Origin: an uncultured Candidatus Binatia bacterium
GTDB taxonomy: Bacteria > Desulfobacterota > Binatia > UBA9968 > JAJDTQ01
Direction: 5' to 3'
Assembly (NCBI GenBank): GCA_965242525.1
Contig: OZ251459.1
Coordinates: 2,137,515-2,201,514 of the forward strand
DNA length: 64,000 nt
Under the pieces are notes generated by a model. The model was not told where the DNA came from. It saw only the letters and a program-made list of their open reading frames with translations, and did no database searches. A program made the translations under genes and the position numbers. Positions 8,076 to 47,516 of this stretch are shown piece after piece; position 1 is the stretch's first letter, and each line of letters starts with the position of its first letter.

Positions 8076-8123
8076 CCGTACGGAAACTCTCGCGGGGGAA
8101 CGGCAATCCAGGGAGAGAGACTC

Positions 8124-9113
8124 ATGCTCAAGGTGATTCCGGTGGAAGAAGCGGTGGGGATGCGCCTGGCCCACGACATTACCGAGATCATACCGGGGGG
8201 CCACAAGGGTCCCCGGTTCAAGCGGGGGCACCTGATCGCCCAAGAGGACGTGCCAAGGCTGCTGGACGTGGGCAAGGCCCACATCTACATCATGGAGCTG
8301 GCCCCGGACGAACTGCACGAAGAAGACGCCGCCCTCCGGCTGGCCCGGGCCGCCGCGGGAGGCGGCCTCAGGCTCTCGGACCCGAGCGAGGGCCGGGTCA
8401 ACCTGGTGGCGGAAGGGGACGGACTGCTGGAGGTGGACCAGGATCGGCTGTTCCGCTTCAACGAGTTGGGGGACCTGATCCTGGCTACGCTGCGTTCGGG
8501 GGAGTTCGTCCGGGAAGGCACGGTGGTGGGAGGCACGCGCACCATCCCGGTGGTGGTGAAGGAAGACTTGGCGGCCCGGGCCGAAGCCCTGTGCAAGGAC
8601 GGGCCCATCGTATCAGTGGCGGCCATGCCCGCACGGAAGGTCTTCCTGCTGGTGACCGGAAGCGAGGTCTTCACCGGCCGCATCGTGGACGGCTTCGAGC
8701 CGGTGGTGCGCAAGAAGGTGGAGCGCATGGGCTCGACCCTGGAGCCCGCGGTCCTGGCCCCGGACGACCCGGACGTCATCGCCGGCCACATCCGGGAGTT
8801 CGCCGCCGGGGGCGCCGACGTCATCCTGGTGAGCGGCGGCATGTCCGTGGACCCTGACGACCTCACCCCCGAAGGCATCCGCCGAAGCGGCGCGGACGTG
8901 GTGTCCCACGGCTTCCCGGTGCTCCCCGGGTCCATGTTCCTCATGAGCTACCTGGGAGACGTGCCGGTCCTCGGCCTGTCCGGGTGCGTCCTCCACGACC
9001 CGATCACCGTCTTCGATTTCATGCTGCCCAAACTGCTGGCGGGCGCCCGTGTCACCCGCTGCGGCATCCTGCGCATGGGCCACGGCGGACTCCAGAAGAA
9101 GCACGACCACTGA
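8124..9113 (+). CDS. Molybdopterin-binding (MoCF-biosynthesis / MoeA-CinA-like) domain protein
   Basis: 329 aa. The C-terminal half resembles the MoCF_biosynth fold (KVFLLVTGSEVFTGRIVDGF, ADVILVSGGMSVDPDDLTPEGI). The assignment is by resemblance only. Confidence 0.55.
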   Translation: MLKVIPVEEAVGMRLAHDITEIIPGGHKGPRFKRGHLIAQEDVPRLLDVGKAHIYIMELAPDELHEEDAALRLARAAAGGGLRLSDPSEGRVNLVAEGDGLLEVDQDRLFRFNELGDLILATLRSGEFVREGTVVGGTRTIPVVVKEDLAARAEALCKDGPIVSVAAMPARKVFLLVTGSEVFTGRIVDGFEPVVRKKVERMGSTLEPAVLAPDDPDVIAGHIREFAAGGADVILVSGGMSVDPDDLTPEGIRRSGADVVSHGFPVLPGSMFLMSYLGDVPVLGLSGCVLHDPITVFDFMLPKLLAGARVTRCGILRMGHGGLQKKHDH

Positions 9114-9158: not shown

Positions 9159-9677
9159 ACCCGTGTTTCCTGTATCCAACTCATCGTGGCGAAGACTGGA
9201 CAGTTGCAGGTTCGCGTCAGTGCGGACGAGAGGGAGCGTATCAGGCAGCGCGCGGAAAACGCGGGCATGACCGTATCCGAATGGGTGCTCAGGCAGTTGC
9301 TGCCGCCCGTCGAGGATGAGTTCCAGGGGCTTTGCCTCGGTCTTGCGGAGCGGCCCGAATTCCGCACCCACGCCCTGGCCCATCTCCATGACTTCTTCCG
9401 GCGTCTGGGCGAACGGGAATTCTCCCTGGCCGTGCGGTACCCGCCGCAGGTGGAGTTGGCGCCGTTCGAGGCAAATTACGTGGCGGCGATGGTGGAGTAC
9501 GCCGCGGTCCTCAAGGGGGCGCCGATGCCGGATTGGACCCGGGACGTGCCGCCCCTGGAGACGCCCTGGTTCGCCGCCCCCGAACGGAGCTTGCGGCTGC
9601 ATCTGCTCACGCAGTCGCCGCCGCCGTTCCGCCGGCGCAACCTGTTCGTGGACGCCAGCGTCGGGAGCCGGGCATGA
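9150..9677 (+). CDS. Ribbon-helix-helix (CopG-like) domain protein, antitoxin-like
   Basis: The N-terminal segment QLQVRVSADERERIRQRAENAGMTVSEWVLRQLL is a typical RHH motif. The stop overlaps the next gene's ATG in an ATGA junction at 9674-9677. The true start may be the GTG at 9186. Confidence 0.6.
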   Translation: MTFTRVSCIQLIVAKTGQLQVRVSADERERIRQRAENAGMTVSEWVLRQLLPPVEDEFQGLCLGLAERPEFRTHALAHLHDFFRRLGEREFSLAVRYPPQVELAPFEANYVAAMVEYAAVLKGAPMPDWTRDVPPLETPWFAAPERSLRLHLLTQSPPPFRRRNLFVDASVGSRA

Positions 9678-10240
9678 CGCCGCTGGCCCGAGAGGACATC
9701 CTCCGTTTGCTGCAACGGCTGAACGACGAGTTGGCGCGCGATGGCGTGTGCGGGGAACTCTACCTGGTCGGGGGCGCGGTGTTGTGCCTTGCCTTCGACG
9801 CTCGCCGGACGACGGTGGACCTCGACGGGTTCTTTCGTCCATCGCGCGAGATGCGTACGGCCGCGCGACGAGTCGCCGCGGCCGAAGGGCTGAACGACGA
9901 CTGGCTGAACGACAGCGCCAAGGGGTTTCTCAGTAGCAAGGGGGACTTCCGACAACATCTGGCGCTGTCCAACCTGCGCGTGCTCACGGCCAGCCCGGAA
10001 TACCTGCTGGCGATGAAGTGTCTGGCCATGCGCCTCGGCGGAGAGTTCCACGACCGGGAGGACGTCAGGTTCCTGCTCCGTTACCTGAACGTCACGCAGC
10101 AGGACGCAGCCCTGGAGATGGTGAGCCGCTACTACCCGCCGGAAAAGATCCCGCAGAAGACGTTCTACGCGCTCGCGGAAATGGTCGAAGACCTGGCGGC
10201 AGCACAGGGTGTTGCACCCGCTTCGACCGGCAAGTGTTGA
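9674..10240 (+). CDS. Minimal nucleotidyltransferase-fold protein (AbiEii/DUF6036-like), toxin-like partner
   Basis: 188 aa from the ATG verified at 9674. LYLVGGAVLCLAFDARRTTVDLDGFF matches the GG...R.T.DLD nucleotidyltransferase signature. It is translationally coupled to the RHH gene. Confidence 0.55.
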   Translation: MTPLAREDILRLLQRLNDELARDGVCGELYLVGGAVLCLAFDARRTTVDLDGFFRPSREMRTAARRVAAAEGLNDDWLNDSAKGFLSSKGDFRQHLALSNLRVLTASPEYLLAMKCLAMRLGGEFHDREDVRFLLRYLNVTQQDAALEMVSRYYPPEKIPQKTFYALAEMVEDLAAAQGVAPASTGKC

Positions 10241-10352
10241 TACTCCGTCAGGTGTAGAGCGTCGTCCGACTACAAGGGTCCGAAAGGCCGAAGTAGTAGG
10301 CGGGCCCGTCCCGTTGAACGGGTCCCTGCGATGCAACCCGGGGCCGAGGTGC

Positions 10353-10358
10353 TATACT
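10353..10358 (+). promoter_or_regulatory. Extended -10 element TGcTATACT upstream of the AAA/PD-(D/E)XK gene
   Basis: TG at 10350-10351 and TATACT at 10353-10358, only 10 nt before the ATG at 10369. No clear -35 was found. Confidence 0.3.
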
Positions 10359-10368
10359 GTTTGTCGCC

Positions 10369-11961
10369 ATGCGCTTCTTCAACACGTCGGGCCCCGTGGT
10401 CGCCGAAGACCACTACCGCATCCCGCCGCTGCAACGGGTGGATCTGGGCGAGGTCCTGGAGTTGATCCGGAGCAAGCGCTACTTCGTGCTCCATGCCCCC
10501 CGACAGACCGGCAAGACCTCCGTCCTGCTCGCCTTGCGGGACCTGCTGAACAGCGGCGCGGAGGGGGATTTCCGTTGCGTTTACGGAAACGTCGAGGCCG
10601 GTCAGGCTGCCCGGGAGGACGTGGGAGAGGCCATGCGCGCCGTCCTGGGCGAACTGGCGTCCAGGGCACTATCCTTGCACGACGAGTTCCCGGACGGCGC
10701 TTGGCCCGACATCCTCGCAAGGTCGGGTCCCCACGGAGCTCTCGGAGAGACCTTGACCCGCTGGTGTCGGGCGGACCCTCGCCCTCTGGTGCTGCTCATG
10801 GACGAGGTCGATTCCCTGGTGGGCGACACGCTCATCTCCGTGCTCCGCCAGTTGCGCGCAGGCTACGACCGGCGTCCCGAGGAGTTTCCGCACAGCGTGG
10901 TGTTGTGCGGCGTGCGTGACGTGCGCGACTACCGCATCCGGTCGAGCTCGGAGAACGCGGTGGTGGCCGGGGGCAGCGCGTTCAACATCAAGGCCGAATC
11001 CCTGCGCCTCGGGGACTTCACGGAAGCCGAAGTGCGCGCGCTGCTCAGCCAGCACACCACGGAGACCGGGCAGGCGTTCACCCCGGCGGCGCTGGATGCG
11101 GTCTGGCGGCAGACCCGCGGGCAGCCGTGGCTGGTCAACGCGCTCTGCCACCAGGCCTGCTTCCGCAACGAGGCCGGGCGCGACCGCTCCCACGCCATCA
11201 CCCACGACGACGTCCTCGACGCCCAGGAACAACTCATCCTGCGCCGGGAGACCCACCTCGACCAACTCGCCGACAAGCTCCGGGAAGACCGCGTCCGCCG
11301 GGTGGTGGAGCCGCTGCTGACCGGCGGCGAGCCCCGGTACGGTTCGCGGGACCTGGAGTACGTGCGCGACCTGGGCTTGGTCACACGGGAGTCCCCGCCG
11401 CGCATGGCCAACCCCATCTACGCCGAGGTGGTGCCGCGGGAACTGTCCCACGTGGTCCAGGACAGCCTGGAACAGGAAGTGGCCTGGTACGTGGACGCCG
11501 AGGGCGGCCTCGACATGGACAAGCTGCTCGCCGCCTTCCAGACGTTCTTCCGGGAACACTCGGAACACTGGCTGGGGCGCTTCGACTACGCCGAAGCCGG
11601 TCCGCAACTCATCCTGCAGGCATTCCTCCAGCGGGTCGTGAACAGCGACGGCCGCGTCGAGCGGGAATACGGCCTGGGAAGGGGACGAACCGACCTGCTC
11701 ATCCTCTGGCCCCGGAAAGGCCGGGAAGCACCGGAACCCGCCGTGGACAAGTTCGTCATCGAGTGCAAGGTCCTGCACAAGAGCCTGGAGCAGAGCATCC
11801 GCGAAGGCCTGGAGCAGACCGCGGGCTACATGGACCGTTGCGCCGCCCAGGCCGGCCACTTGGTGGTCTTCGACCGAAACCCGGACAGGCAGTGGGACGA
11901 AAAGATCTTCCGCCGGGACGAGTCCGTGGACGGGCGGGCGGTTACCGTGTGGGGGATGTAG
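10369..11961 (+). CDS. AAA-type ATPase with C-terminal PD-(D/E)XK nuclease-like domain
   Basis: N-terminus MRFFNTSGPVVAEDHYRIPPLQR, Walker A HAPRQTGKTS, Walker B LVLLMDEVDSL, and a C-terminal GRTDLLILWP...KFVIECKV (D...E.K) motif. Confidence 0.7.
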   Translation: MRFFNTSGPVVAEDHYRIPPLQRVDLGEVLELIRSKRYFVLHAPRQTGKTSVLLALRDLLNSGAEGDFRCVYGNVEAGQAAREDVGEAMRAVLGELASRALSLHDEFPDGAWPDILARSGPHGALGETLTRWCRADPRPLVLLMDEVDSLVGDTLISVLRQLRAGYDRRPEEFPHSVVLCGVRDVRDYRIRSSSENAVVAGGSAFNIKAESLRLGDFTEAEVRALLSQHTTETGQAFTPAALDAVWRQTRGQPWLVNALCHQACFRNEAGRDRSHAITHDDVLDAQEQLILRRETHLDQLADKLREDRVRRVVEPLLTGGEPRYGSRDLEYVRDLGLVTRESPPRMANPIYAEVVPRELSHVVQDSLEQEVAWYVDAEGGLDMDKLLAAFQTFFREHSEHWLGRFDYAEAGPQLILQAFLQRVVNSDGRVEREYGLGRGRTDLLILWPRKGREAPEPAVDKFVIECKVLHKSLEQSIREGLEQTAGYMDRCAAQAGHLVVFDRNPDRQWDEKIFRRDESVDGRAVTVWGM

Positions 11962-11994
11962 ATATCGAGAGGTCAACACAATGACCGACAGGTA

Positions 11995-12023
11995 TTGACA
12001 CTTCACGGAGTATGGAGTATAGG
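11995..12023 (+). promoter_or_regulatory. Sigma-70-like promoter of the low-GC operon (-35 TTGACA, 17-nt spacer, -10 TATAGG)
   Basis: TTGACA at 11995-12000 and TATAGG at 12018-12023, read directly. It lies in the 110-nt gap exactly where GC content drops. Confidence 0.4.
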
Positions 12024-12071
12024 CCCCGACTAACTGATGCTTGGCCGCTTTCCCATGACAGGAGTTGTACC

Positions 12072-13106
12072 GTGACAGAACACCACAAAATGCTCGAGGT
12101 GAATCAAATTGACTTCGACACTGAAAATCCCAGGATAAAAATGGCGTTGGAGAAATACGGTAGCCGTCTGAATGCCGAGCGCATTCATTTTGCCTTGCGC
12201 TCCGCTACCGAAGGTTCCAGCGGTACTTCGTCCTACTCCAGCCTGAGAGATTCAATACGCTCTAGTCATGGGGTCATCGCGCCAATCATCGTAAGACCTA
12301 AAGGCCACAGCTACGTCTGCATCGACGGAAATACCCGCCTGGCGATCTACAAACAGTTTCAAAGAGAAGAAATAGAAGGAGATTGGAGCAAAATCAAAGC
12401 CATTGTTCTCGATCATGCCGAACAGCGCGATATCGAAACCGTCCGTGTATCGGCACACCTGGTTGGCGCCCGAGAATGGCCTGCCTACGAAAAGGCAAGG
12501 TATCTTCATTATCTCCGTAATCAGCAGTGTATGGATTACAGCGAAATGATAGCTCTCTGTGGCGGCAACAAAAACGAGATCGAACGTCAGATCGACGCAT
12601 ACCACGACATGAACTCATATTACCGAGATAAGGTGGACGACACCGCTTTTCGTATCGACCGTTATAGCGGATTCGTAGAACTTCAACGGCCGCAGGTCAA
12701 GCAAGCCATTTTTGACGCAGAATTGGACCTAGAGGATTTTGGCGAGTGGATCCGCGATGGCAAAATATACCGCTTGGAGGATGTCCGCAAGTTGCCGAAA
12801 ATCCTTCGAGACGATGAAGCCAAGCGGGTTTTCCTTGAAGGTGGACCTCGCTCAATAGAAGACGCCATGAAGGTTCTCGATCAGAGAACAGGGATCGGGG
12901 ACTCTACGGACAAGGGGCAGACCAGAGTAGAACATGCCACCATCTACGAACTCGCGGACGCGCTCAGCCGGCGAATCAATGACATGCCCTATTCGCAAGT
13001 ACGGGAATTGCGGGAGAAGACTGACGACGACACGGCAGATCAAATTACGCGATTAGAAGATCTATCCGTCAGGCTACGTAATTTGCTGAACGATGTCACA
13101 GAGTGA
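12072..13106 (+). CDS. ParB/Srx-fold N-terminal domain protein (ParB-like 1)
   Basis: INQIDFDTENPR...PIIVRPKGHSYVCIDGNTRLAIY matches the ParB N-domain pattern (DGN.R...A). The preferred start is the GTG at 12072, preceded by AGGAG 7 nt upstream. The ORF-track ATG at 12012 and the ATG at 12090 are alternatives. It is a paralog of 15008..16051. Confidence 0.7.
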   Translation: MTEHHKMLEVNQIDFDTENPRIKMALEKYGSRLNAERIHFALRSATEGSSGTSSYSSLRDSIRSSHGVIAPIIVRPKGHSYVCIDGNTRLAIYKQFQREEIEGDWSKIKAIVLDHAEQRDIETVRVSAHLVGAREWPAYEKARYLHYLRNQQCMDYSEMIALCGGNKNEIERQIDAYHDMNSYYRDKVDDTAFRIDRYSGFVELQRPQVKQAIFDAELDLEDFGEWIRDGKIYRLEDVRKLPKILRDDEAKRVFLEGGPRSIEDAMKVLDQRTGIGDSTDKGQTRVEHATIYELADALSRRINDMPYSQVRELREKTDDDTADQITRLEDLSVRLRNLLNDVTE

Positions 13107-13536
13107 AACACACAGAAACCTGGTCCTCCAGGTCGCAAGAGCAATTGAGGACCGTTATGCCCAAATATCCGTCATTACCGATTTGCAGCAGAACCCTGGA
13201 GATACAGTGCCACCAATGATCTGCGGCCACCGCCCTGATGTTTACGCCTACGAAGAAGTACAGCGCCTCTGCATCGTTGCAGAGGCCAAGACCGATTCGG
13301 ACCTCGACAATCTTCATACGCAACGCCAGTTGATGGCCTTTATCAACTATCTTAGCGACAGAGAAAAGAGCTTGTTCATCTTGTCGGTAAAGGGCACCAA
13401 GTCCGACCACGGGAAGACTCTGCTGCGGTTCACTCATCGACTTCTGGCTGTAAAGAACGTGCCTCTTGAAATTTTCGATGGTCATGATTTCTGGTCCTTC
13501 AACCTACAGGACGAAACTACGTGGCATTTACTTTGA
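13093..13536 (+). CDS. Small PD-(D/E)XK-like (restriction-endonuclease fold) protein
   Basis: 147 aa. GHRPDVYAYEEVQRLCIVAEAKT fits the D-x(n)-E-x-K arrangement. It overlaps the upstream gene by 14 nt and the downstream gene by 16 nt. Confidence 0.45.
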   Translation: MSQSETHRNLVLQVARAIEDRYAQISVITDLQQNPGDTVPPMICGHRPDVYAYEEVQRLCIVAEAKTDSDLDNLHTQRQLMAFINYLSDREKSLFILSVKGTKSDHGKTLLRFTHRLLAVKNVPLEIFDGHDFWSFNLQDETTWHLL

Positions 13537-15020
13537 GAAAACCACCCAGCCTGGTGGCAAGACACGAAGCCTATGCCTATCAGCTCGATGCTTTAAGAGC
13601 CGTAAAGGCGCTTCCTTATGCCGCCATATTCCACGAGCAAGGGCTCGGTAAAACAAAGATAGCTATTGACTTGATGTTGCTGTGGCTATCCAATGACTTA
13701 GTGGACACTGTATTTGTGATTACAAAAAAGAGCTTGGTTCAAAATTGGTTTGATGAACTTACCTCTCACTCATACGTAACTCCTCGAATTCTTTCCGATA
13801 ACCGTCGCGAGAACAGCCTCGCACTAAACTCACCTGTATTGATCTATATTATGAACTACGAAGCAATCTCGGCAAATCTTCATTTGATCGAGGATTTTCT
13901 CATTACCTGTAGGGTTGGCGCAATCCTTGACGAAAGTCACAAGATCAAAAACCCGCAAGCAAGGGCATCGATCTGCCTTCACTCTATCGCCGACAAATTC
14001 TCGCGTAAGGTGATAATGACGGGAACGCCAGTGGCGAACCGTCCTTATGATCTTTGGTCGCAAGTCAAGTTTTTGGACGGAGGACAGTCTCTCGGGTCTT
14101 CTTTTGCTGATTTCAAAGCAACCTTTGATCTTCCCGGTCAGCCAAGTTGCACACAGGAATACAGTGAACGACTATCCAATATCATTGACAAGATTAGACA
14201 TTTCTCGGTGCGAGAGACAAAGCGTACCGTAGAATTGAGCCTACCCGACAAGACAATACTAACTCATTTCGTGAACATGGCGCCTCGCCAAGCGGTAATA
14301 TATGACTCCTACGTGACCGAAGCGGCCTACGAGATCAACCTTGGGGACGACCTGATTCTGGACAACGCCGAAGACATCCTGAAACGCCTGTTACGCCTGG
14401 TGGAGTGCGCCTCTAATCCTTTCTTGGTTGACAAGAGATACTCTGAGGTGCCAGGGAAGTTCTCCGAACTCTTGAAGCTTCTCCAGGAAATTGACTTACG
14501 AGCACATAAAGTGGTTTTGTGGACAGGGTTTGTTGATAATGTAGAATGGATAACTGCCCAATTGAAGGAGTTTTCGCCCTTGAAGGTTCATGGTCGTATG
14601 TCCATTGAGCAACGGAACCAGTCCATAAGCAGATTCAAAACCCACCAGAAACACCGTGTCTTTGTAGCCACGCCTGGCTCTGCAAAGGAAGGCTTAACTT
14701 TGACAGTAGCCAATCATGCTGTTTTCTACGATCGAAGCTTCAGTCTTGATGATTACCTCCAGGCGCAAGACCGAATTCATAGAATCTCTCAAACTGAAGA
14801 CTGCTATGTACACAACTTGATCGCCAAACAAACCGTGGATGAGTGGGTGGATGCTTTGCTAAACGCAAAACATATCGCTGCACAGCTATCTCAAGGTGAT
14901 ATTTCTCAAGCTGAGTTTGAGTCTTCCTTTACCTTCAATTTAGCCGAAATACTGGCAGACATATTAACTTCCAGGTCGCTCGCTTCCAGGAGTCAGGAGA
15001 ACGGAAAATGGCCGAAATAA
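13521..15020 (+). CDS. SNF2-family ATPase/translocase (core-only, 499 aa)
   Basis: Motif I HEQGLGKT, motif II ILDESHKIKN, motif III MTGTPVANRPYDLWS, and motif VI YLQAQDRIHRISQT. GTG start at 13521. Confidence 0.85.
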   Translation: MAFTLRKPPSLVARHEAYAYQLDALRAVKALPYAAIFHEQGLGKTKIAIDLMLLWLSNDLVDTVFVITKKSLVQNWFDELTSHSYVTPRILSDNRRENSLALNSPVLIYIMNYEAISANLHLIEDFLITCRVGAILDESHKIKNPQARASICLHSIADKFSRKVIMTGTPVANRPYDLWSQVKFLDGGQSLGSSFADFKATFDLPGQPSCTQEYSERLSNIIDKIRHFSVRETKRTVELSLPDKTILTHFVNMAPRQAVIYDSYVTEAAYEINLGDDLILDNAEDILKRLLRLVECASNPFLVDKRYSEVPGKFSELLKLLQEIDLRAHKVVLWTGFVDNVEWITAQLKEFSPLKVHGRMSIEQRNQSISRFKTHQKHRVFVATPGSAKEGLTLTVANHAVFYDRSFSLDDYLQAQDRIHRISQTEDCYVHNLIAKQTVDEWVDALLNAKHIAAQLSQGDISQAEFESSFTFNLAEILADILTSRSLASRSQENGKWPK

Positions 15021-16051
15021 AGATCCTCAAGGAATCGGTGCAGGTAGTCAAGGAAGACTATGTGCATATCTACGAACTGAAGTTCCTGAAAGACAACCCT
15101 CGCGTATACGCGTGTACACATGAGTACCCGAATTTCGATGACTTGATGGAAGAGCAACAGCAAGACGTCATTTTCGATAAACTAAAGGAAGAGACGAGCG
15201 TCAAAAATCTCCGTCCTGAGATAGAACGGCATGGGGGCCTTATGGAGCCGATACTGGTTCGGCTCGATACACGCCAAGTCATTGAAGGCAATTCTCGCCT
15301 CGCTGTATACCGCCTGCTGTACGAAGGGACGAGGGAGAGCGACTGGGAATATATTCCGTGCAGCATGGTAAGTGGGCTAACAGAGCGTCAACAGGCCGCT
15401 TTTCTCAACGAAGTCCATGTGAAGGGCAAGACTCAATGGTCCCCCTACGAAAAGGCCAACTTCGCCTATGTCCGCAGGGAACGAGGTTGGAGTCTCAGTG
15501 ACATCGCCGAACTTTTCGGAGAGTCAGTAAATACGATTAGAACCCGAGTAAAGGTCATTGAAACCATGAAAGGGAACTCGGATGGCACAAAATCTCATTT
15601 CAGTCATTACGATGTACTAGTTCGAATACCTGCTATAGAGAAGGAGCTTTCTCAAAATGACGAGCTGCGCAATCTTCTTTACGCGGAGATCAAGAAGATC
15701 GATCCCAGAGACGACAAGAGCGCGAATGAGGACGAAACTGGCGAAGAGGACGAAAGCGGTTTCACCGCGCAGGAACTCAGGAGGAAACTGCCCGCGATCA
15801 TCGAGAAACCTAAGGTTTTGCGAAAATATATCGAAGGTGAAATAGATTTGGACGAAGGCTACCAGCGTGCGAAGATCAGCAACGCGGAAACCCGAGTTCG
15901 GAAAGCAAAAGGACTTTTGGAGGACGTTTCTCGAGAAGAGGTGACAAGGCTCGAACAGAATCGCTTCAATGCGTTCAAACAGGATGTACGGAGGATATCC
16001 CGCGTAGTGGAGCGCCTCAATGAGATCACAAAGGACCGTGAGACACCATGA
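15008..16051 (+). CDS. ParB/Srx-fold N-terminal domain protein (ParB-like 2)
   Basis: LKFLKDNPR...PILVRLDTRQVIEGNSRLAVYRLL. It aligns with ParB-like 1 beyond the N-domain (W.YEKA..., HTH-like SLSDIAELFGESVNTIRTRV). The ATG at 15008 is preceded by GGAGA. Confidence 0.7.
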   Translation: MAEIKILKESVQVVKEDYVHIYELKFLKDNPRVYACTHEYPNFDDLMEEQQQDVIFDKLKEETSVKNLRPEIERHGGLMEPILVRLDTRQVIEGNSRLAVYRLLYEGTRESDWEYIPCSMVSGLTERQQAAFLNEVHVKGKTQWSPYEKANFAYVRRERGWSLSDIAELFGESVNTIRTRVKVIETMKGNSDGTKSHFSHYDVLVRIPAIEKELSQNDELRNLLYAEIKKIDPRDDKSANEDETGEEDESGFTAQELRRKLPAIIEKPKVLRKYIEGEIDLDEGYQRAKISNAETRVRKAKGLLEDVSREEVTRLEQNRFNAFKQDVRRISRVVERLNEITKDRETP

Positions 16052-17688
16052 TTCCGTACAATGTACTGCTAGTCGAGCCCGGATACTTCAACAAGTATCC
16101 GCCGCTTGGGTTAATGAAGTTGGCAGCATATCATGGCGCTCGCGGTCGTGGCGACCGGGTCCGCTTCGTCAAAGGTGAGGATCGTGAAGTGTCGCTGGAG
16201 TCGTGGGATCGAGTTTATGTAGCTACATTGTTCAGTTTTGAATGGGCGCGTACTGCCGCGGCAATTGATTTTGCCATCCGGACCGTGCGCGGCCAGACAG
16301 AACGGGTATTTGTAGGCGGCATCGCCGCATCGCTTATGCATGAGCACTTTGAGAACGAACCACGATGGTCGGGTGTCCGTTTTATTAAAGGACTATTGAC
16401 TGATCCGCCGGCAGTTGCGCTGCGTTTATCAGCAGAAGATTGTGATTTTGGCTTTGACGACCACCAGGGACCCCCTATCGAGGAGTTGATTCCAGACTAC
16501 TCCATTCTCGATCAGATCGAATATTCCTATCCTGTCCGAGACGCCTACTTTGGATACGCTTCACGTGGTTGCGTTCGGAAATGTGCGTTCTGTGGCGTTC
16601 CTAAACTGGAAGGCGCTCAGCGCGAAATGCCTTCCCTTACTTCCTTGGTCAAAGGAATCGAAGATGCATACGGACCCAAGAAGGACCTGGTGTTGATGGA
16701 TAATAACGTCACGGCATCCCTGCGATACAAGGAGATAATTGCTGAAATCCGGGATCTCGGCTTCACGCCAGGCGCTAGGCTCGAACGCAGTGGGCGACCG
16801 CCGATCAAGCGACGCGTGGATTTCAATCAAGGCGTTGACGCGAGGATTCTTGCCAAGTCCCCGCTCTTTCTTAGGGAAATGGCAAAAATCTGTATCAGTC
16901 CTCTTCGTATCGCCTTTGACCACCTTGGGGTACGAAAAGTATATGAGACTTCTGTTCGAATGGCAGCACACCACGGAATCACCTCCTTATCAAACTATAT
17001 GCTCTATAACTTTATGGACACTCCCGCAGATCTATACGACCGCATGCGTTTGAATATTACCCTCAATAACGACTTGGGCATCCGTATTTGGTCATTTCCG
17101 ATGCGTTATCAGCCAGTCTATCTCAAGGACCGTTCCCACGTAGGCAAAAATTGGACGAGATACCAACTACGCTCCTTTCAGATTATGCTGCAGGCGACTC
17201 GAGGGGTTGTTAGCGGCAACCCTTCCTTCTTCATGCGGGCTTACGGAGAAGACAAACGCGACTTCGAACAACTTTTGAGTTTGCCACATGCTTTCATTTT
17301 TCACCGTGATTACTACGAGAGAGGACCAGGACGAGGCATCCGAGATGACTATGAGACGGCACGACGGCGCCTTTCCAAGTCTCAAGAACAGGAATTGCTT
17401 GGTTTGCTGGAAGGCTCGGACAGTGTACCGGGTTTTCGAAGGGATCGGCTTCGCTCTTTGGTAGCCGACCCTGGCATTGACACATCTATTCGTAGAGTCA
17501 TTCGATTTCACTTGCTGGATACAAAAGAGAAACCGCAGAACCCCATTCTGCCGCTCTTCCCCGACCTTAATCCTGATCCAGCTTTCCCTGACGACGATGA
17601 ACTTGTCGAGGACGCCGGACTCTTTGATCACGAACACGCCTTGGAACAATCTGAAAAGGCCATCAAAGGAAACCATCATGGTCAATGA
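16048..17688 (+). CDS. Radical SAM protein with B12-binding-like N-terminal domain
   Basis: ASRGCVRKCAFCGV contains the CxxxCxxC motif. The N-terminus VLLVEPGYFNKYPPLGLMKLAAY resembles the B12-binding-domain radical SAM class. ATGA overlap with the upstream gene at 16048-16051. Confidence 0.8.
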   Translation: MIPYNVLLVEPGYFNKYPPLGLMKLAAYHGARGRGDRVRFVKGEDREVSLESWDRVYVATLFSFEWARTAAAIDFAIRTVRGQTERVFVGGIAASLMHEHFENEPRWSGVRFIKGLLTDPPAVALRLSAEDCDFGFDDHQGPPIEELIPDYSILDQIEYSYPVRDAYFGYASRGCVRKCAFCGVPKLEGAQREMPSLTSLVKGIEDAYGPKKDLVLMDNNVTASLRYKEIIAEIRDLGFTPGARLERSGRPPIKRRVDFNQGVDARILAKSPLFLREMAKICISPLRIAFDHLGVRKVYETSVRMAAHHGITSLSNYMLYNFMDTPADLYDRMRLNITLNNDLGIRIWSFPMRYQPVYLKDRSHVGKNWTRYQLRSFQIMLQATRGVVSGNPSFFMRAYGEDKRDFEQLLSLPHAFIFHRDYYERGPGRGIRDDYETARRRLSKSQEQELLGLLEGSDSVPGFRRDRLRSLVADPGIDTSIRRVIRFHLLDTKEKPQNPILPLFPDLNPDPAFPDDDELVEDAGLFDHEHALEQSEKAIKGNHHGQ

Positions 17689-19186
17689 AGCAAGTGCTAT
17701 GACGACGACGACACGGCAGTCACTTGACTCGATTGGCAGCGACATTCTCAACCTAATTACCCTTGGAATGTACAATAACCCTCTTGCCATCTATCGCGAG
17801 TACATCCAAAACGCTGCGGATGCGCTTGCACGTTCTGGAAGTCGCACTGACGGCCAAGTGGCAATCCATTTTGACAAGTCCGCATCGTCCATAACGATTC
17901 GAGACACCGGACCAGGCCTATCACCGAAGTCCGCAAGACGCGCACTTTTGCCCATTGCCAAGAGCGAAAAGGAATTCCAGGCTGAACGCGGTTTTCGCGG
18001 CATCGGTCGCTTGTCCGGACTGGCTTTCGGCAAATCCGTCACCTTTCTTACGCGAGCACGAGGAGACCAGCCAGCAACAAGTGTCAAATGGGACGGACTG
18101 AAACTTCGGACAAACATTGACCAGCGCAAACCGATTGAACGGGTACTCAAGGAAGCTGTTACGGTAGAACCGCTAACAAGACCAGATTTCCCGCCACACT
18201 TCTTCGAGGTCCAAGTGAACGGTATCGCGCGACACGCAGCGGGACTGATACTCAATCGAGACGCGGTCCGGACGTACATTGGCGAAGTATGTCCTGTCCC
18301 TATTTCCCGATCCTTCCCCTTTGCAACCCGGATCCTCGCTTTATTCCAAGCGGAAGCTCCTTTATTCGCGCTGAACCTTGTCTTGGATGGCACCCCCGGC
18401 CCTGTCACACGCCCCTTTGACGACGCGATTCGATTTTCGGATGACAAGCTAGACAAGTTCACGGAGTTTCAGGAAATCAGGATCCCATCGGTAGACCGAG
18501 AAGGACATGCGGCAGTTGGCTGGATTGCACATTCAAATTATTTGGGCGCTATTCCCAAGGAACACGCCATTCGAGGTGTTCGAGCACGTGCGGGCAACAT
18601 ACAGATTGGGAACGAAGCTGTCTTTGATCACCTTTTTTCTGACGATCGCTTTAATCGCTGGTGTGTTGGCGAACTCCATATCATGGACTCGCGTATCATC
18701 CCCAATGCTCGCCGTGACTACTTTGAGCCGGGTCCACACATCCGAAACCTGGAGAACCAGCTTATCGCTGTATTTCGAGAAGTAGTTGCGCGATGCAGGA
18801 AGGCATCCGCAGAACGCAACAGGGAACGAAGGTTGCAGTCCGGATTGCGGGAAATCGAGGATGCTTATCACTTGGCACAATCCGGCTATTTGTCCATGGG
18901 AGATTCTCAAGCCTTGATCGCGCGCGGTCTCAACCGTCTCCAAGACTTCCGGAACAACTGGAGCGAGATGAACGCCTGTGCAAAGACGGAATTGGAAAAC
19001 CTTGAATCGAACCTTCAAAAATTCCAGCCTTCACATAGTCATCTACCCGTGGCTAATTTGTCAAAGTTGGAAGCGGCAACGTACAGAAAGCTTTTTCACG
19101 CTTTGGTAGAGACGTCCCCTTCCCCGCGCATTGCCAAAGAAACAATCGAAGCTGTCCTTGTCCACCTACAGCGCAGGGTCGCATGA
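17678..19186 (+). CDS. GHKL-superfamily ATPase (HATPase_c_3 / MORC- or Hsp90-like)
   Basis: 502 aa from the ATG verified at 17678. N-box REYIQNAADAL, G1 IRDTGPGL, G2 ERGFRGIGRLSGLAFG. It overlaps the radical SAM gene by 11 nt. The ORF-track start at 17477 is rejected because it lies inside the radical SAM gene. Confidence 0.75.
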   Translation: MVNEASAMTTTTRQSLDSIGSDILNLITLGMYNNPLAIYREYIQNAADALARSGSRTDGQVAIHFDKSASSITIRDTGPGLSPKSARRALLPIAKSEKEFQAERGFRGIGRLSGLAFGKSVTFLTRARGDQPATSVKWDGLKLRTNIDQRKPIERVLKEAVTVEPLTRPDFPPHFFEVQVNGIARHAAGLILNRDAVRTYIGEVCPVPISRSFPFATRILALFQAEAPLFALNLVLDGTPGPVTRPFDDAIRFSDDKLDKFTEFQEIRIPSVDREGHAAVGWIAHSNYLGAIPKEHAIRGVRARAGNIQIGNEAVFDHLFSDDRFNRWCVGELHIMDSRIIPNARRDYFEPGPHIRNLENQLIAVFREVVARCRKASAERNRERRLQSGLREIEDAYHLAQSGYLSMGDSQALIARGLNRLQDFRNNWSEMNACAKTELENLESNLQKFQPSHSHLPVANLSKLEAATYRKLFHALVETSPSPRIAKETIEAVLVHLQRRVA

Positions 19187-19199
19187 GAGGAAACGGCGT

Positions 19200-20681
19200 T
19201 CAGAGTTTCTCTACGCGGCTTGCCCTCGAACGCAGAAAGTTGAAATCGGCGTCGTCACCGACATCCGGCATCGCGAGCAAGCGTTCGATAAAAGTCTCCG
19301 GCTGACGCTGCTTCCGCTGTGTCTTCAAGCCGCCCCGCCATTCCAGCAGGACGACTTCTTCTCGAAGCTGTTCGCCGGTCACCGTCGAAGGGCGTGTCCG
19401 AAAGAGGTCGATGCCCATGACCCGGTAGTGCAACGACCGGGCCAAGTCGGCCAGGAGTCGGCCCGTGGGGATACGGACCCGCAGATACGACGCCTGGTCG
19501 CCGACCACGTAGGCGAGCCTGGCCCCCGGCTTGAGGACGGCGCGGAGCGACGCGAGGTGTTTCGCCATGCCGCCGAAGTAGAGCCGCGTGACGCGCGGAT
19601 ACAACCGCTCGAAGCCGGAGGTCTTGCCCAACTCGATACGGCGCTTCTCGATGGCTTCGGCGATGTCCCGTATCTCGGCATGGTCGGCAACCTCACGATC
19701 GTCCGTGTCCGCCTTATAGACGCCCCGGGTGTTGGACCGGATCAGGTTCCGTTTCATGGACCGCAATTCCTGCCGGTCGCGCACCAGTCCCAGGATGACG
19801 GACTCCAACCGTGTGGTGCGCGTGTAGTCCTTTTCGTTGGGATACGGCGGGGAGGTGATCACGGTATCGACGGACCCCGGCTCCAGCGCTCGATGGATCG
19901 CGCGGGCGTCCGCCTCCACGACCCGGGACGGCGCGTCCGTCCGGCCCTTGAGGAGTTCCAGGTCGCCGACGATGGTTCGGAAGCAGTCGAGCCAGGCGTC
20001 GACGGCCGGCGCGTCGTCCTTGATCCGGCCCACGCCGACTTCGGGACCGAACTTCAGGTTCCCGATGCGCAGCACCAGCGCGTTGGCAAGCGCCAGGCGG
20101 CCATAGGGCCGCAGTTGCGGCCGGTCGTGCCGGTCCATGGCGTCCAGCAGGGTCAGCGTCTTGTGGAGGGGCAGCGGACTGATGGAGTCCTTCAGCAGCA
20201 GTTTCGACCGGTCGGGGGGAAGACCCTGCAACACGGGTGGTCCGCTCCCGTTCGCGGCGAAGAGCGGAAGCCCCGCGGCCTCCCGGATGCCCTGCCGTTC
20301 CAGCGTCCTTCGCGCCGCCGCCGCAACCCGACGGGAATAGTCCGAAAGCGCCGCCGGGTCGGCCGACCAATCGACCTTCACCGAACTCGCAAAAGACCCC
20401 ATGGGGTTCGACTCGACGCCCACGCTGGGAATGCCGAGTTTCTTGCACTCCACCAACGTCGTGCCCGTGCCGCAGAAGGGGTCCAGGACCGTATGGGAGC
20501 GGTCCACGCCGAGCCGTTCCATGTAGTCCCTTACCAAGTGGGGCGGGAACGACAGGACGAACCGATACCATTGATGGGCCGGACGGTCTTCAGGCCGCAG
20601 CCTGTTCCGGTCGCCTTGGGTTCCGCCGGTGTCGGCAACCGCGGCCCGGCCGCTGCGCGTATCGGAAATCAGATCCGCCAT
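19200..20681 (-). CDS. DNA methyltransferase (motif I before motif IV SPPY; N6-adenine or N4-cytosine type)
   Basis: LDPFCGTGTTLVECKKLG (AdoMet-binding motif) and VDTVITSPPYPNEKDY (catalytic motif). The ATG at 20679-20681 is verified as 'cat'. The gene has host-like high GC and its stop lies 13 nt from the GHKL gene's stop. Confidence 0.75.
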   Translation of the reverse strand: MADLISDTRSGRAAVADTGGTQGDRNRLRPEDRPAHQWYRFVLSFPPHLVRDYMERLGVDRSHTVLDPFCGTGTTLVECKKLGIPSVGVESNPMGSFASSVKVDWSADPAALSDYSRRVAAAARRTLERQGIREAAGLPLFAANGSGPPVLQGLPPDRSKLLLKDSISPLPLHKTLTLLDAMDRHDRPQLRPYGRLALANALVLRIGNLKFGPEVGVGRIKDDAPAVDAWLDCFRTIVGDLELLKGRTDAPSRVVEADARAIHRALEPGSVDTVITSPPYPNEKDYTRTTRLESVILGLVRDRQELRSMKRNLIRSNTRGVYKADTDDREVADHAEIRDIAEAIEKRRIELGKTSGFERLYPRVTRLYFGGMAKHLASLRAVLKPGARLAYVVGDQASYLRVRIPTGRLLADLARSLHYRVMGIDLFRTRPSTVTGEQLREEVVLLEWRGGLKTQRKQRQPETFIERLLAMPDVGDDADFNFLRSRASRVEKL

Positions 20682-20745
20682 CGGAGTTCCTGGCCGAACG
20701 GGTCGAGGGAGTCCAGCCTTTCCATGGCAACACGTGCGAGAACCG

Positions 20746-21459
20746 TCAGTCCACCGGAACGCAGGTGACCTCCACCCGTCCGTCACCGTGCAGTCGAACC
20801 GCGTTGACCGTGCCGGCGTAGGTCGGAGACCCCGAGTAGTAGGCGGGCACCCCGTCTTCGCCCACGCGCACGGCGCGGTTCCAGTGGCCCAGAGCCACGT
20901 AGTCGGCGCGGCTGGCGGCCAAGTTCTCCTGCCGGATCAGCCACGAGCCCAGCAGCAGGCCCGCCCGGGGCGCGTCCTCCACGTAATGGCCGTGGGCCAC
21001 CGCCAACTGCCAGCGGGTGCGCCGCTCGGGCGGCTCGGGCAGGGGCATCATGTCCAGGTAGTCCACGTGGGGACGGCCCCATACCTCCAGGTCCAGCTCG
21101 GGGAAGCCGCTCCGGTCCTCGGTGAGGCCCAGCACGCGCACGTTACCCGCGCCGGCGAACTCGGACCGGCGATAGACCGAATCAGGAGTCAGGGGGTCGT
21201 GGTTGCCCGGCAGGACCACGATGGGGAGGCCGGAGTCGGCCATGACTCCGGCCGCGTCCTCGATGAACCGGGGACCCTGGCGGTTGTGGTCGAAGGTGTC
21301 CCCCGCCAGGATCACCAAGTCGGCGCCCTGGGCGCTCGCAATCGAGAGCACCTGTTGCAGCACCGGCAGGTTGCCGGAATCGTCTTCGTTCAGGACGCTG
21401 TCCGCGCCCAGGTGGAGGTCCGATGTGTGGACGACGAGGACTTCACGCGGTGCGTTCAT
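20746..21459 (-). CDS. Calcineurin-like metallophosphoesterase (SbcD/Mre11-like fold)
   Basis: VVHTSDLHLG, LILAGDTFDH, VVLPGNHD and AVAHGH motifs. Start verified at the ATG at 21459. Confidence 0.75.
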   Translation of the reverse strand: MNAPREVLVVHTSDLHLGADSVLNEDDSGNLPVLQQVLSIASAQGADLVILAGDTFDHNRQGPRFIEDAAGVMADSGLPIVVLPGNHDPLTPDSVYRRSEFAGAGNVRVLGLTEDRSGFPELDLEVWGRPHVDYLDMMPLPEPPERRTRWQLAVAHGHYVEDAPRAGLLLGSWLIRQENLAASRADYVALGHWNRAVRVGEDGVPAYYSGSPTYAGTVNAVRLHGDGRVEVTCVPVD

Positions 21460-21661
21460 GCTGGCGGTTTCTCCCTTCCCGGTGCGCCGCGGCCTGCGGG
21501 GACGCGGCTCCGCGGGCCGCAAGCGCGTCCGTCCCGGGGGCCTGGACCCGCCGGACACCGAGGGCCTGCCGGACGGAGGCGCCCTCTTCCAACGGCATGT
21601 GGTCGGGAGCCCTGGCGCCGGCTGCGGGACGGAAACCGCTGCGGAAGGCCTGCGGCCCGGG

Positions 21662-47024: not shown

Positions 47025-47036
47025 GGGCCACCGAAG

Positions 47037-47516
47037 ATGTGCATCATCGTGGACGCCAACAAGCTCGATGTCTTTCTCGCCGACCCGGCCGACGAGAATT
47101 CCAGGCCGATACGCAGGTGGCTAAGTCAGGGCGCGGGGAGCATCGTGTATTCGACGGAAGGCAAGTTTGCGCAGGAGATCCGAGGTCGAGCCAAGGCCAA
47201 GCTGGCCGATTACGTTCGAGCCGGCAGAGCGAAGCACGTCCCCGCGAGCCTGTTCGCCGACGAAGAACGCAAGCTGGAAACTCACGCAGACCTCCGCTCC
47301 GATGATCCGCACGTGCTCGCGTTGGCGAGAGCGACCGGTGTACGTCTCCTGTACACCGCAGACGGGAAACTCACGTCGGACTTCAAGAACAAGAACATCA
47401 TCGACCGGCCGAGGGGCAAGGTTTATTCCGGCGCAGGCAATGCCAATCTGCTGACCCCCTCGGCATGTGCGTCGTCATGGCCAAGGTCTGCTTCGAAATC
47501 ATGGCCGACTTCATAG
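47037..47516 (+). CDS. PIN-like domain protein (predicted nuclease partner of the ATPase)
   Basis: MCIIVDAN... and SDDPHVLALARATGVRLLYTADGKL resemble PIN acidic-residue motifs. It starts 12 nt after the ATPase stop. The assignment is tentative. Confidence 0.45.
   Translation: MCIIVDANKLDVFLADPADENSRPIRRWLSQGAGSIVYSTEGKFAQEIRGRAKAKLADYVRAGRAKHVPASLFADEERKLETHADLRSDDPHVLALARATGVRLLYTADGKLTSDFKNKNIIDRPRGKVYSGAGNANLLTPSACASSWPRSASKSWPTS

Follow-up and report, generated by a model that had tools for sequence, protein, structure and literature searches.

The window, that is, the whole 64,000-nt stretch of DNA analysed here, contains a cassette of six genes whose composition departs sharply from that of its surroundings, and it raises the question of whether these genes form a named system and, if not, what they might do. 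GC content per 1 kb bin is 0.47–0.53 across 12001–19000 and 0.64–0.73 in the flanks on either side, and the switch spans ~200–300 bp, at 11.9–12.1 kb on the left and at 19.1–19.4 kb on the right. The abrupt change described in an earlier note on this DNA was thus borne out, and the horizontal acquisition that it had proposed was verified. As it had also stated, no tRNA lies near the cassette (there is none anywhere in the window) and no repeats flank it. The cassette and its surroundings comprise the following features.

10369–11961: AAA ATPase with host-like GC, outside the cassette
11995–12023, plus strand: weak candidate promoter, TTGACA-17 nt-TATAGG, read from the sequence
12060–12064, plus strand: Shine-Dalgarno-like AGGAG, 7 nt before GTG 12072, read from the sequence
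12072–13106 (mechanical ORF 12012–13106), plus strand: gene A, ParB/Srx-like protein 1, with NPR and DGNTR motifs
13093–13536, plus strand: gene B, stand-alone PD-(D/E)XK nuclease domain of 147 aa, with D30, P48-D49, E64-A-K66 and Q79
13521–15020, plus strand: gene C, core-only SNF2 ATPase/translocase, with GLGKT, DESH and QAQDRIHRISQ
15008–16051, plus strand: gene D, ParB/Srx-like protein 2 with HTH, a paralog of A, with NPR and EGNSRLA motifs
16048–17688, plus strand: gene E, radical SAM enzyme, with CVRKCAFC (C175, C179, C182)
17678–19186, plus strand: gene F, Hsp90-like GHKL ATPase domain, with E41, N45, D48; D76xGxG; G105xRGxGR
19200–20786: methyltransferase with host-like GC, outside the cassette

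The six ORFs share one strand and overlap at every junction, by 14, 16, 13, 4 and 11 nt from A to F, just as the earlier note had read them; all six of its domain calls were verified, and every catalytic or family motif that it named was found in the translated products. For gene A, GTG 12072, preceded by AGGAG, is the probable start rather than the mechanical one, ATG 12012, which runs into the proposed −10; read from the GTG, the product has 344 aa, as in most close orthologs. The near-consensus promoter that had been placed at the GC break stood up in part: the hexamers are there, in the 110 nt that separate gene A from the host gene upstream, but TATAGG has no T at −7 and so fails the criterion of a consensus scan, and the region shows no excess of promoter-like sites (6 found, 6.5 expected from shuffles). 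The methyltransferase and the AAA ATPase were both rejected as cassette members, since their GC is host-like and, across 82 related loci, neither was found adjoining the cassette; the methyltransferase is unrelated to it.

The products of A and D, which group in one cluster, match ParB-like PHROG profiles (phrog_3264 at 1.3e-8 and phrog_1033 at 4.2e-10, respectively). The Pfam ParB_N match of A is sub-threshold (1.6e-3), and the family profile of D aligns with Spo0J (1vz0) across the N-domain plus HTH with an E-value of 0.02, its motifs being kept in 30 orthologs. B carries the motif RPD...EAK in a restriction-nuclease fold and resembles catalytic-only subunits, such as the small subunit of R.BspD6I and the FokI cleavage domain; nothing in PADLOC-DB v2 matches it. 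C is recognized by Pfam as SNF2-rel_dom (5.2e-30) and Helicase_C (5.2e-16), matches phrog_62 at 5.7e-89 and, in PADLOC-DB v2, has generic SNF2 matches only (ZorD, DpdE, DrmD).

The radical SAM protein, E, consists of a Rossmann/B12-binding-like N-domain, a radical SAM core and a helical C-terminal region with a VEDAGLFD tail. Its best structural matches, TsrM, CysS, TokK and MgmA among them, are Class B (cobalamin-binding domain) radical SAM enzymes, which have the same two-domain layout of a Rossmann-like N-domain and a radical SAM barrel. E matches phrog_9298, 'radical SAM domain protein', at 7e-38; its Pfam Radical_SAM match is sub-threshold only, and PADLOC-DB v2, the sole defence-model library searched and one that may not hold viperin models, gives no match. 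F carries EYIQNAADA, DTGPGL and GIGRLSG, and the motif residues listed above for its ATPase domain are invariant across 30 orthologs. F matches Pfam HATPase_c_3 at 9.5e-12, and its family profile matches the HtpG N-domain at 2.9e-13, limited to residues 16–137. Beyond the ATPase domain lie ~360 aa of unassigned fold, for which no relative was detectable; PADLOC-DB v2 gives one marginal match for F (REase_II). The catalytic motifs of B, C, E and F are all intact.

No name for the cassette was found in the PDB, nor in PADLOC-DB v2, NCBIfam r20 or full-text literature, where, as in RefSeq annotation (generic names only for cassette genes in cultured hosts), the earlier view that no named system with such a gene set is known was upheld. 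All NCBIfam r20 matches of the cassette proteins lie far below their cut-offs. Like the cassette, the Dpd (7-deazaguanine) system is a multi-gene island with a modifying enzyme, a ParB-superfamily NTPase (DpdB) and, in its restriction arm, an SNF2-type helicase (DpdE); DpdB is a ParB-like ATPase required for DNA modification by DpdA (PMC10164549, PMC12839542). C matches DpdE models (up to 5e-37 in PADLOC), DndB-like partners of E in relatives match the PADLOC DpdB model (4e-18 and 7e-11), and the logic that we propose below, self marked and the rest restricted, would be alike. However, the window's own A and D give no DpdB match, C scores 34.9 bits against an NCBIfam DpdE cut-off of 500, the Dpd restriction arm has eight genes to the cassette's four, and the cassette lacks DpdA (TGT) and DpdC, its candidate modifier being the radical SAM protein with the GHKL ATPase.

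Dnd/Ssp phosphorothioate systems likewise join a conserved modification module to interchangeable restriction modules, and orphan modification modules are possible there, as for E–F; they have an accessory ParB-superfamily protein, DndB (DGQHR), and PF14072 matches occur in partners of E in relatives. The cassette lacks a cysteine desulfurase, PP-loop DndC/SspD and SMC-like DndD/SspC, and its chemistry would differ. DISARM, type I Zorya and BREX-related defence operons couple an SNF2 ATPase to a nuclease, as the cassette does, and C matches ZorD at 2e-47 and DrmD at 5e-20 in PADLOC, but the generic SNF2 core alone is held in common: NCBIfam equivalog scores are far under cut-offs, and ZorA/B, DrmA/B/C, PglZ, BrxC and methyltransferases are missing from the cassette. 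F shares with the GHKL/MORC ATPases linked to RM genes (BbrUII/HgiDII) a Bergerat fold, intact N-box, G1 and G2 motifs and a nuclease-containing operon, but its match to NCBIfam restrict_BbrUII is weak (1.6e-6, 27 bits against a cut-off of 550) and the similarity is confined to the ~130 aa ATPase domain, which is nearest to HtpG. No description of a GHKL ATPase paired with a radical SAM protein was found in the literature searched.

E has matches in 390 of 185,579 species genomes, a patchy distribution. Among these, the 80 closest are MAGs from at least ten phyla, largely sponge-symbiont lineages, with E 64–75% identical, well above A–D and F (25–70%). Cultured Alphaproteobacteria carry the cassette too, on conjugative or large plasmids; pNL1 and p187_1 have copies, and there is a Bradyrhizobium version. 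In 77 of 84 loci the AT content of the cassette exceeds that of its flanks. What lies in the flanks varies widely, with CBASS cyclases, AbiE, AriA, PDC-S01 and REases among the genes there; defence genes are a minority, and many flanks hold housekeeping genes. Low GC, presence in at least ten phyla at ~70% identity, plasmid copies and varied flanks are signs of a horizontally mobile island.

The co-occurrence in other genomes supposed by the earlier note is there as well: 37 of those 80 genomes keep the order A–F, which persists at a locus (L169) where the radical SAM protein is just 45% identical. E and F, adjacent in 85 of 86 loci, form a near-constant pair, the conserved core. A–D are present in 56 of the same 80: upstream in 37, which is the arrangement of the window, downstream in 15, inverted in 2 and split in 2; their order is kept in all 72 loci anchored on B, with A first in every case. 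A radical SAM gene of the E family accompanies ABCD in 44 of the 46 loci with adequate flanks. One exception (L240) is broken by an IS element. At the other (L212), ABCD is embedded in a DpnII methylase/endonuclease operon, with two DNA methyltransferases on one side and the DpnII endonuclease on the other, and a methyltransferase stop overlaps the start of A; at this single locus, DNA-modifying enzymes fill the radical SAM position.

The gene set, order and recurrence of the six-gene unit thus stand, but it is not indivisible: two modules, ABCD and EF, make it up and can be separated. Besides ABCD, E–F has other partners: a DndB+Swt1-HEPN protein; PIN_8 and a second GHKL; or a second GHKL alongside a weakly NurA-like protein and one of 565 aa. 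Such partner swapping is typical of conflict systems. E–F has no partner module at all in L040 and L016; L040 and L045 have a common downstream flank, with homology beginning ~98 nt upstream of E and ABCD in L045 only. Genomes can therefore tolerate E–F by itself, as they would an orphan modification enzyme. In variants from gut and rumen the radical SAM protein is short and GHKL is absent, which indicates that GHKL is dispensable for whatever the radical SAM enzyme does. Phages carry hundreds of short E homologs, in replication and DNA-modification regions, and the 120 genes neighbouring them include 9 DNA methylases and 4 PAPS reductases.

Most likely, the cassette is an undescribed defence system against foreign DNA. 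We see an even chance that it is a horizontally mobile, two-module system resembling RM, in which E–F marks self DNA and ABCD attacks unmarked DNA. This reading draws on the linkage of E–F and ABCD from both the radical SAM and the nuclease sides; on partner swapping, E–F alone, the higher conservation of E and phage E homologs near DNA methylases; and on the intact catalytic motifs, the restriction-nuclease fold of B and the signs of a mobile island. Against it count the failure to detect a reader domain for modified bases, the HEPN or PIN domains of some alternative partners, the gut and rumen variants that lack GHKL, the single locus behind the methyltransferase replacement and the minority share of defence genes in the flanks.

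Defence without marking of self seems unlikely. Here E, with F, would make or alter a nucleotide or small molecule on infection, like viperins and Ophion, or damage invader nucleic acid, the ParB-like, SNF2 and GHKL NTPases would be sensors, and the PD-(D/E)XK, HEPN and PIN proteins would be abortive-infection or direct effectors. HEPN and PIN domains are usually RNA cutters in abortive-infection systems, and as partners of E–F they would sit more easily with such a sensor/effector scheme than with a mark on self DNA. Prokaryotic viperins and Ophion also have a radical SAM enzyme as signature component of an anti-phage system, but E is set apart by its B12-binding-like N-domain and GHKL partner and, with no PADLOC match, has no tie to the radical SAM defence families modelled there. 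In Ophion the radical SAM protein is joined by a PHP protein and a PRTase (bioRxiv 10.1101/2025.09.30.679545), and both of these partners are missing from the cassette. The tight association of E–F with DNA-directed proteins, its replacement by DNA methyltransferases in L212 and the DNA methylases around phage E homologs also argue against such a role. The survival of E–F alone in some genomes is neutral in this respect.

It is quite unlikely that the cassette serves the element carrying it, whether by modifying element DNA to evade host restriction or as an addiction or partition-like cassette stabilising plasmids and islands, with the ParB-like proteins acting in element maintenance. The two ParB-like genes would suit such a module; plasmid copies lie beside leading-region-type genes (ArdC-like, DUF736, DUF1173, SRAP), ICE or prophage genes adjoin the cassette in L169, copies occur in contigs classed as viral, and short E homologs are common in phages among anti-restriction-type genes. 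Most copies, however, lie in chromosomes and have no genes for mobility, replication or partition (ParA) next to them, partition has no need of a nuclease and SNF2 module, and swapped nuclease effectors are the architecture of a defence system. In RM-like systems, addiction and defence are compatible. Highly improbable, and already disfavoured, is a housekeeping operon for DNA repair or nucleoid organisation that merely looks foreign, with an SNF2 remodeller, ParB-like clamps, a GHKL ATPase and a radical SAM enzyme that repairs DNA in the manner of spore photoproduct lyase, a precedent for a DNA-acting radical SAM enzyme: each component has relatives in chromosome biology, but the patchy distribution, anomalous GC, ~70% identity across phyla, variable insertion sites, plasmid-borne copies, modules present or absent between related genomes and the IS-disrupted cassette all speak against it, and E itself, in agreement with the earlier note, was rejected as a housekeeping family, having no equivalog, an island location and GC below the flanks in those 77 loci.

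If, as we prefer, E–F marks self and ABCD restricts the rest, the first module would use radical SAM chemistry to mark the DNA of its own cell, and DNA would be the substrate of E. The GHKL ATPase, plus a ParB-like NTPase where present, would load or hold the radical SAM enzyme on DNA, as DpdB for DpdA; in some relatives, a DndB/DpdB-like ParB-superfamily protein does accompany E and F. The second module would be the restriction arm, in which the ParB-like A and D would bind or clamp DNA, the SNF2 protein C would translocate, and the catalytic-domain-only nuclease B would be delivered to DNA that lacks the mark.

Most 1 kb bins of the window have a GC content of 64-73%, with a dip to 0.55-0.63 at 45-52 kb. 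In seven 1 kb bins, from 12001 to 19000, GC content falls to 0.47-0.53, and at 200 nt resolution the edges of this block lie at 11.9-12.1 kb (fall) and 19.1-19.4 kb (rise). The block is filled by six plus-strand ORFs, A-F, which make up the cassette and overlap at their junctions by 14, 16, 13, 4 and 11 nt. An earlier note, made by a model from the sequence alone, had described the GC break and the five overlaps, and both were reproduced; every motif that it quoted was also found in the translations of the six ORFs. Its proposed promoter stood in part: the plus-strand TTGACA-17-TATAGG is present at 11995-12023, but it fails a consensus scan, having no T at -7. A promoter/terminator scan found promoter-like sites no commoner in the cassette region than in shuffled sequence. 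The likeliest start of gene A is GTG 12072, 7 nt past an AGGAG; it gives 344 aa, as in most close orthologs. The alternative, ATG 12012, would overlap the proposed -10. There is no tRNA across the whole window, and no direct or inverted repeat marks an insertion around the cassette; the note had likewise seen no tRNA and no flanking direct repeat. Rfam matched no family, and specifically no cobalamin or SAM riboswitch.

The host-GC flanks of the cassette, 9533-11961 and 19200-21558, look defence-related, and a second defence-like stretch of lower GC (0.55-0.63) lies at 45678-55439. These regions contain the following genes.

9533-10240, AbiEii-like nucleotidyltransferase (weak match), host GC
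10369-11961, AAA_22 ATPase, upstream neighbour of the cassette, host GC
19200-20786, minus strand, N6_N4 methyltransferase, downstream neighbour of the cassette, host GC
20746-21558, minus strand, metallophosphoesterase overlapping the N6_N4 methyltransferase, host GC
45678-47024, AAA_15/AAA_21 and DUF3696 ATPase, second defence-like stretch
47467-49347, Schlafen AlbA_2 and HATPase_c_4 protein, second defence-like stretch
49586-50926, type I restriction-modification specificity subunit HsdS, second defence-like stretch
51906-53147, AAA_21 ATPase, second defence-like stretch

None of the flanking genes is kept beside the cassette elsewhere. We considered the methyltransferase and the AAA ATPase that adjoin it as members and rejected both, as they have host GC and lie beside the cassette in 0 of 82 related loci.

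Protein E (16048-17688) carries a CX3CX2C [4Fe-4S]-binding motif inside a partial TIM barrel, and thus belongs to the radical SAM superfamily. Its N-domain is B12-binding-like; class B radical SAM enzymes, of which E is a candidate member, are defined by an N-terminal Rossmann domain that binds cobalamin. Weak RimO matches raised the possibility of a methylthiotransferase, which we rejected because the N-domain lacks the conserved cysteines that a second cluster would need. Run against BFVD as a fold search, the predicted model of E gave low-TM matches only, to phage radical SAM proteins. In the variable, low-confidence C-terminal tail of E, residues 520-527 (window 17605-17628) form a conserved acidic peptide, VEDAGL[F/Y][D/E]. 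Sponge, soil and plasmid orthologs have this peptide, and the most divergent orthologs lack it. F, a ParB-like partner or a host factor may dock there.

Protein F (17678-19186) has the Bergerat fold of GHKL ATPases, with an N-box (ExxxNxxD), G1 (DxGxG) and G2 (GxxGxG). These motifs are invariant in 30 orthologs, PF13589 matches at 45.5 bits (cut-off 25), and the ATPase domain is nearest to the HtpG N-domain (profile 2.9e-13); the ~360 residues that follow it have no detectable relative. Protein B combines the alpha-beta-beta-beta-alpha-beta core and the D...(D/E)xK catalytic residues of PD-(D/E)XK nucleases. Close relatives of B, of E and of the C-terminal part of F are missing from the PDB, and searches of it with single sequences of E and B and with a B profile returned nothing useful. 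Protein C is a core-only SNF2 family ATPase, with Walker A and DExH in the N-lobe, motif VI in the C-lobe (motifs GLGKT, DESH and QAQDRIHRISQ) and matches to PF00176 (105 bits, cut-off 24.9) and PF00271 (59 bits, cut-off 23.5; Pfam 5e-30 and 5e-16).

Proteins A and D are paralogs that fall in one BLAST cluster. The ParB/Srx superfamily is recognized by an N-terminal domain with an NPR-type box and a GxxR(xxA) NTP-binding box, and conserved motifs of this type are found in both (NPR and DGNTR in A, NPR and EGNSRLA in D). ParB-like PHROGs match A and D at 1e-8 and 4e-10, a D profile matches Spo0J weakly (E 0.02), and Pfam ParB_N gives a sub-threshold match to A and none to D. Judged from these sequence matches, both are likely members. 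A DNA-level trace of the paralogy is a 22 nt stretch at 12475-12496 in A (AATGGCCTGCCTACGAAAAGGC) that is 86% identical to 15435-15456 in D (AATGGTCCCCCTACGAAAAGGC) and codes for a common W-x-x-YEKA motif.

More than 7000 homologs of protein E passed a word filter; the best 120 are 68-97% identical, with none carrying a name. A scan restricted to a single genome from each species gave 390 E-positive genomes. The 80 closest are all metagenome-assembled and cover at least 10 phyla, largely in typical sponge-symbiont lineages; they include Dehalococcoidia, Binatia, Nitrospirales, Latescibacterota, Poribacteria, Gemmatimonadota, Acidobacteriota, Thermodesulfobacteriota, and Alpha- and Gammaproteobacteria. 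Some record titles name sponge-specific taxa, such as Ca. Spongiihabitans and Ca. Poriferihabitaceae. Across phyla, E remains 64-75% identical among these genomes, which implies horizontal transfer. As judged from lineages and titles, the distribution suggests that the cassette is shared across one habitat.

To compare gene content, we mapped the six proteins onto related loci (numbered L### here) and clustered all the ORFs found there. In 85 of 86 loci E lies next to F. A-B-C-D is also present in 56 of the 80 closest genomes, lying upstream as in the window (37 genomes), downstream as EF-ABCD (15), inverted (2) or split (2). The earlier note had asked whether the gene set co-occurs elsewhere, and the 37 genomes with the A-B-C-D-E-F order answer that it does. 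Eleven of the 80 carry a second architecture, in which a 360 aa protein (weak NurA match), a 565 aa protein and a second GHKL lie upstream of E-F; in 7 a single ~770 aa protein with DndB and Swt1-like HEPN parts adjoins E-F; and in 6 E-F stands alone or beside a GHKL and 335 aa pair. This pair, a ~625 aa GHKL ATPase and a ~335 aa protein without a Pfam or PADLOC match, recurs beside the cassette in Chloroflexota/Dehalococcoidia (L018 at 17.3-20.4 kb, L019, L030, L032, L035, L036, L042, L045 and L054). Whether an accessory module or an independent system of two genes, it forms a 3.6 kb insertion in L045 relative to L040.

Cultured Alphaproteobacteria carry a further arrangement on plasmids, namely PIN_8, GHKL, DndB-like ('DGQHR'), radical SAM and GHKL. 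Examples are pNL1 (Novosphingobium aromaticivorans DSM 12444) and p187_1 (Bradyrhizobium sp. 187), and Rhizobium and Mesorhizobium plasmids are among the cultured carriers of the system; p187_1 additionally has an inverted ParB-nuclease-SNF2 module, and the RefSeq names of the plasmid cassette genes are generic throughout. The DndB-like partners match the PADLOC DpdB model at 4e-18 and 7e-11. More distant loci keep the same arrangements: an 807 aa radical SAM protein, 45% identical to E, stands in A-B-C-D-E-F order with integrative-element (ICE) or prophage genes adjoining (L169), and a 49%-identical one occurs in the second architecture (L168). The architecture of the cassette survives deep divergence, and the cassette is a real, widespread gene system with a radical SAM and GHKL core.

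We also ran the comparison in reverse, with a metagenome scan anchored on nuclease B instead of E. The order A>B>C>D was kept in 72 of 72 loci, and a radical SAM gene of E's family was present in 44 of the 46 loci whose flanks were long enough to judge. It took one of two forms: a long form with a GHKL neighbour, or a short form of 445-470 aa, found in gut and rumen contigs directly upstream of A and with no GHKL (L224 at 7643-8980, L230 at 7436-8842, and ~25 further contigs). The short form keeps the CX3CX2C and N-terminal motifs, and together with A-B-C-D it is a five-gene form of the system. One exception (L240) has a DDE transposase in the expected place of A and the radical SAM gene. The other (L212, 4654-11052) has no radical SAM gene: its module is set within a DpnII-type restriction-modification operon, in the order Dam-class methyltransferase, N6_N4 methyltransferase, A-B-C-D, DpnII endonuclease, with a methyltransferase stop overlapping the start of A and an nSTAND NTPase upstream. 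Two related Dehalococcoidia genomes have E-F and the downstream flank in common at 77% nucleotide identity; their homology begins ~98 nt upstream of E, and ABCD is present in one of the two. Taken with the swapping of partners, these exceptions and this genome pair indicate that the cassette consists of two separable modules, E-F and A-B-C-D. The ATGA overlap had suggested grouping D with E-F, which we rejected because D always accompanies A-B-C, even where E-F is elsewhere or inverted.

The earlier note knew of no named system with this composition, and we found none in PADLOC-DB v2 (2023) or NCBIfam r20 (2026), which have models neither for B or E nor for the whole set, in the PDB, or in openly accessible full text, where searches gave no description of the gene set. 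Dpd is closest in logic and parts, with a ParB-like NTPase, a modifying enzyme and an SNF2-containing restriction arm. It is defined by DpdA (a TGT-like transglycosylase), DpdB and DpdC; PADLOC gave no DpdA or DpdC match among the cassette proteins, DpdB-like proteins occur in cassette relatives only, and the match of DpdE to C is generic (34.9 bits, NCBIfam cut-off 500). Dnd/Ssp systems share DndB with the cassette family, as well as the idea of separate modules for modification and for restriction, but not the sulfur machinery: none of the six proteins matches PADLOC or NCBIfam models of DndA/IscS, DndC (PP-loop), DndD (SMC-like), DndE or SspABCD.

With DISARM, Zorya, BREX-related systems and Hma, only the SNF2 core is in common. 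DISARM comprises the DrmA helicase, DrmB (DUF1998), DrmC (PLD) or DrmD, and a methyltransferase; C matches DrmD at 45.5 bits (cut-off 950), and there is no DrmA, DrmB or DrmC. Zorya type I comprises the ZorA/ZorB motor, ZorC and ZorD; C matches ZorD over the SNF2 core only (79 bits, NCBIfam cut-off 1500), and ZorA, ZorB and ZorC have no matches in the cassette. For Hma/MADS, defined by HmaA-C or by mad1-8 including a dedicated methyltransferase, the helicase C-lobe of C gives only a generic match to HmaA (1.9e-16); the flanking methyltransferase matches mad2 at 1e-8, and is absent from 82 of 82 related loci. Viperin systems are defined by a viperin-family radical SAM protein, and Ophion by a radical SAM protein together with PHP and PRTase proteins. 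E has no match at E 0.01 in PADLOC, the only defence-model library used, which may lack viperin models, and a Pfam-level domain search found neither PHP nor PRTase in the operon; Ophion, compared by its description (bioRxiv 10.1101/2025.09.30.679545), shares only the radical SAM superfamily with E. Gene content or scores thus disagree with Dpd, Dnd/Ssp, DISARM, Zorya, BREX, Hma, MADS, viperin and Ophion as the identity of the cassette. It is apparently unnamed, though a name may exist in subscription-only papers or in newer DefenseFinder or PADLOC releases.

In 77 of 84 loci the cassette has a lower GC content than its flanks; the mean difference is -0.087, and in no locus is the cassette higher by more than 0.03. 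The flanks differ between genomes. Many of the 114 flanking genes are housekeeping genes; others are of defence type (PDC-S01 (4), CBASS cyclases (2), AbiE, AriA, mad3/mad8 and HEC-01), restriction enzymes or transposases. Nine viral-classed contigs carry the full cassette, and ~360 carry short (~300 aa) phage homologs of E, 25-32% identical to it; the radical SAM family comprises 263 clusters at 50% identity (E-value at most 1e-30). The domains seen most often in 120 genes that lie within three genes of these homologs are DNA methylases (9 in all), PAPS reductase (4), DnaB (4) and integrase (4), and in LoVEphage the E homolog lies between PAPS reductase and Dam. In Marinitoga camini virus 1 (L086, 4995-8821), a 360 aa E homolog (29% identity) adjoins a HerA helicase and a gene whose annotation is single-stranded exonuclease associated with the Rad50/Mre11 complex, on the opposite strand; NurA-like is a candidate reading of this gene. 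This neighbourhood recalls the weakly NurA-like partner of the second architecture.

The earlier note's overall reading, an undescribed multi-gene system of defence type, is supported: the system recurs and has no named match. We class the cassette with the known multi-gene modification/NTPase/nuclease defence islands, and its role is probably one of conflict or defence, whatever the mechanism. Whether its logic resembles restriction-modification, with E-F marking host DNA and A-B-C-D cutting unmarked DNA, we consider evenly balanced. We infer this logic from a pattern: a highly conserved enzyme pair, E-F, can stand alone; its partner modules, which contain nucleases, can replace one another; there are accessory proteins of ParB/DndB/DpdB-like type; phage homologs of E lie among DNA-modification genes; and at one locus DNA methyltransferases take the radical SAM enzyme's place. 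E would put the mark on host DNA, aided by F and, where present, by the DndB-like NTPase, for which DpdB, a helper of DpdA in DNA modification (PMC10164549; PMC12839542), offers a model. A-B-C-D would locate and cut DNA without the mark, the ParB-like proteins binding or clamping DNA, SNF2 translocating and B cleaving. The fuller proposal is tentative: that E-F writes a chemically new, radical-SAM-dependent DNA mark, possibly a cobalamin-dependent C-methyl or other carbon-centred one, as the self label of a restriction-modification-like immunity with interchangeable restriction arms (PD-(D/E)XK and SNF2, HEPN, PIN, NurA-like), the short phage homologs acting as counter-defence.

The HEPN and PIN partners of E-F in relatives, and the precedents of viperin and Ophion, favour the main rival reading, a defence in which E makes or alters a nucleotide or small molecule, or is part of a sensor, and the nucleases are abortive effectors; we think this unlikely. 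A role serving the mobile element itself, in anti-restriction, addiction or maintenance, seems more doubtful still, and a housekeeping role is highly improbable.

If E-F does write a DNA mark, this would be the first defence system in which a radical SAM enzyme places the epigenetic mark on DNA itself. Radical SAM chemistry would then join methylation, phosphorothioation and 7-deazaguanine in the labelling of self DNA, probably with a new modified base or backbone as well, and hundreds of unannotated phage radical SAM genes would be explained as counter-defence or self-protection. The cultured carriers (pNL1, p187_1 and the Rhizobium/Mesorhizobium plasmids) make the proposal directly testable. 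The spread of the cassette at ~70% protein identity through 10 or more phyla, most of the lineages being sponge symbionts, would amount to a habitat-wide sharing of immune genes.
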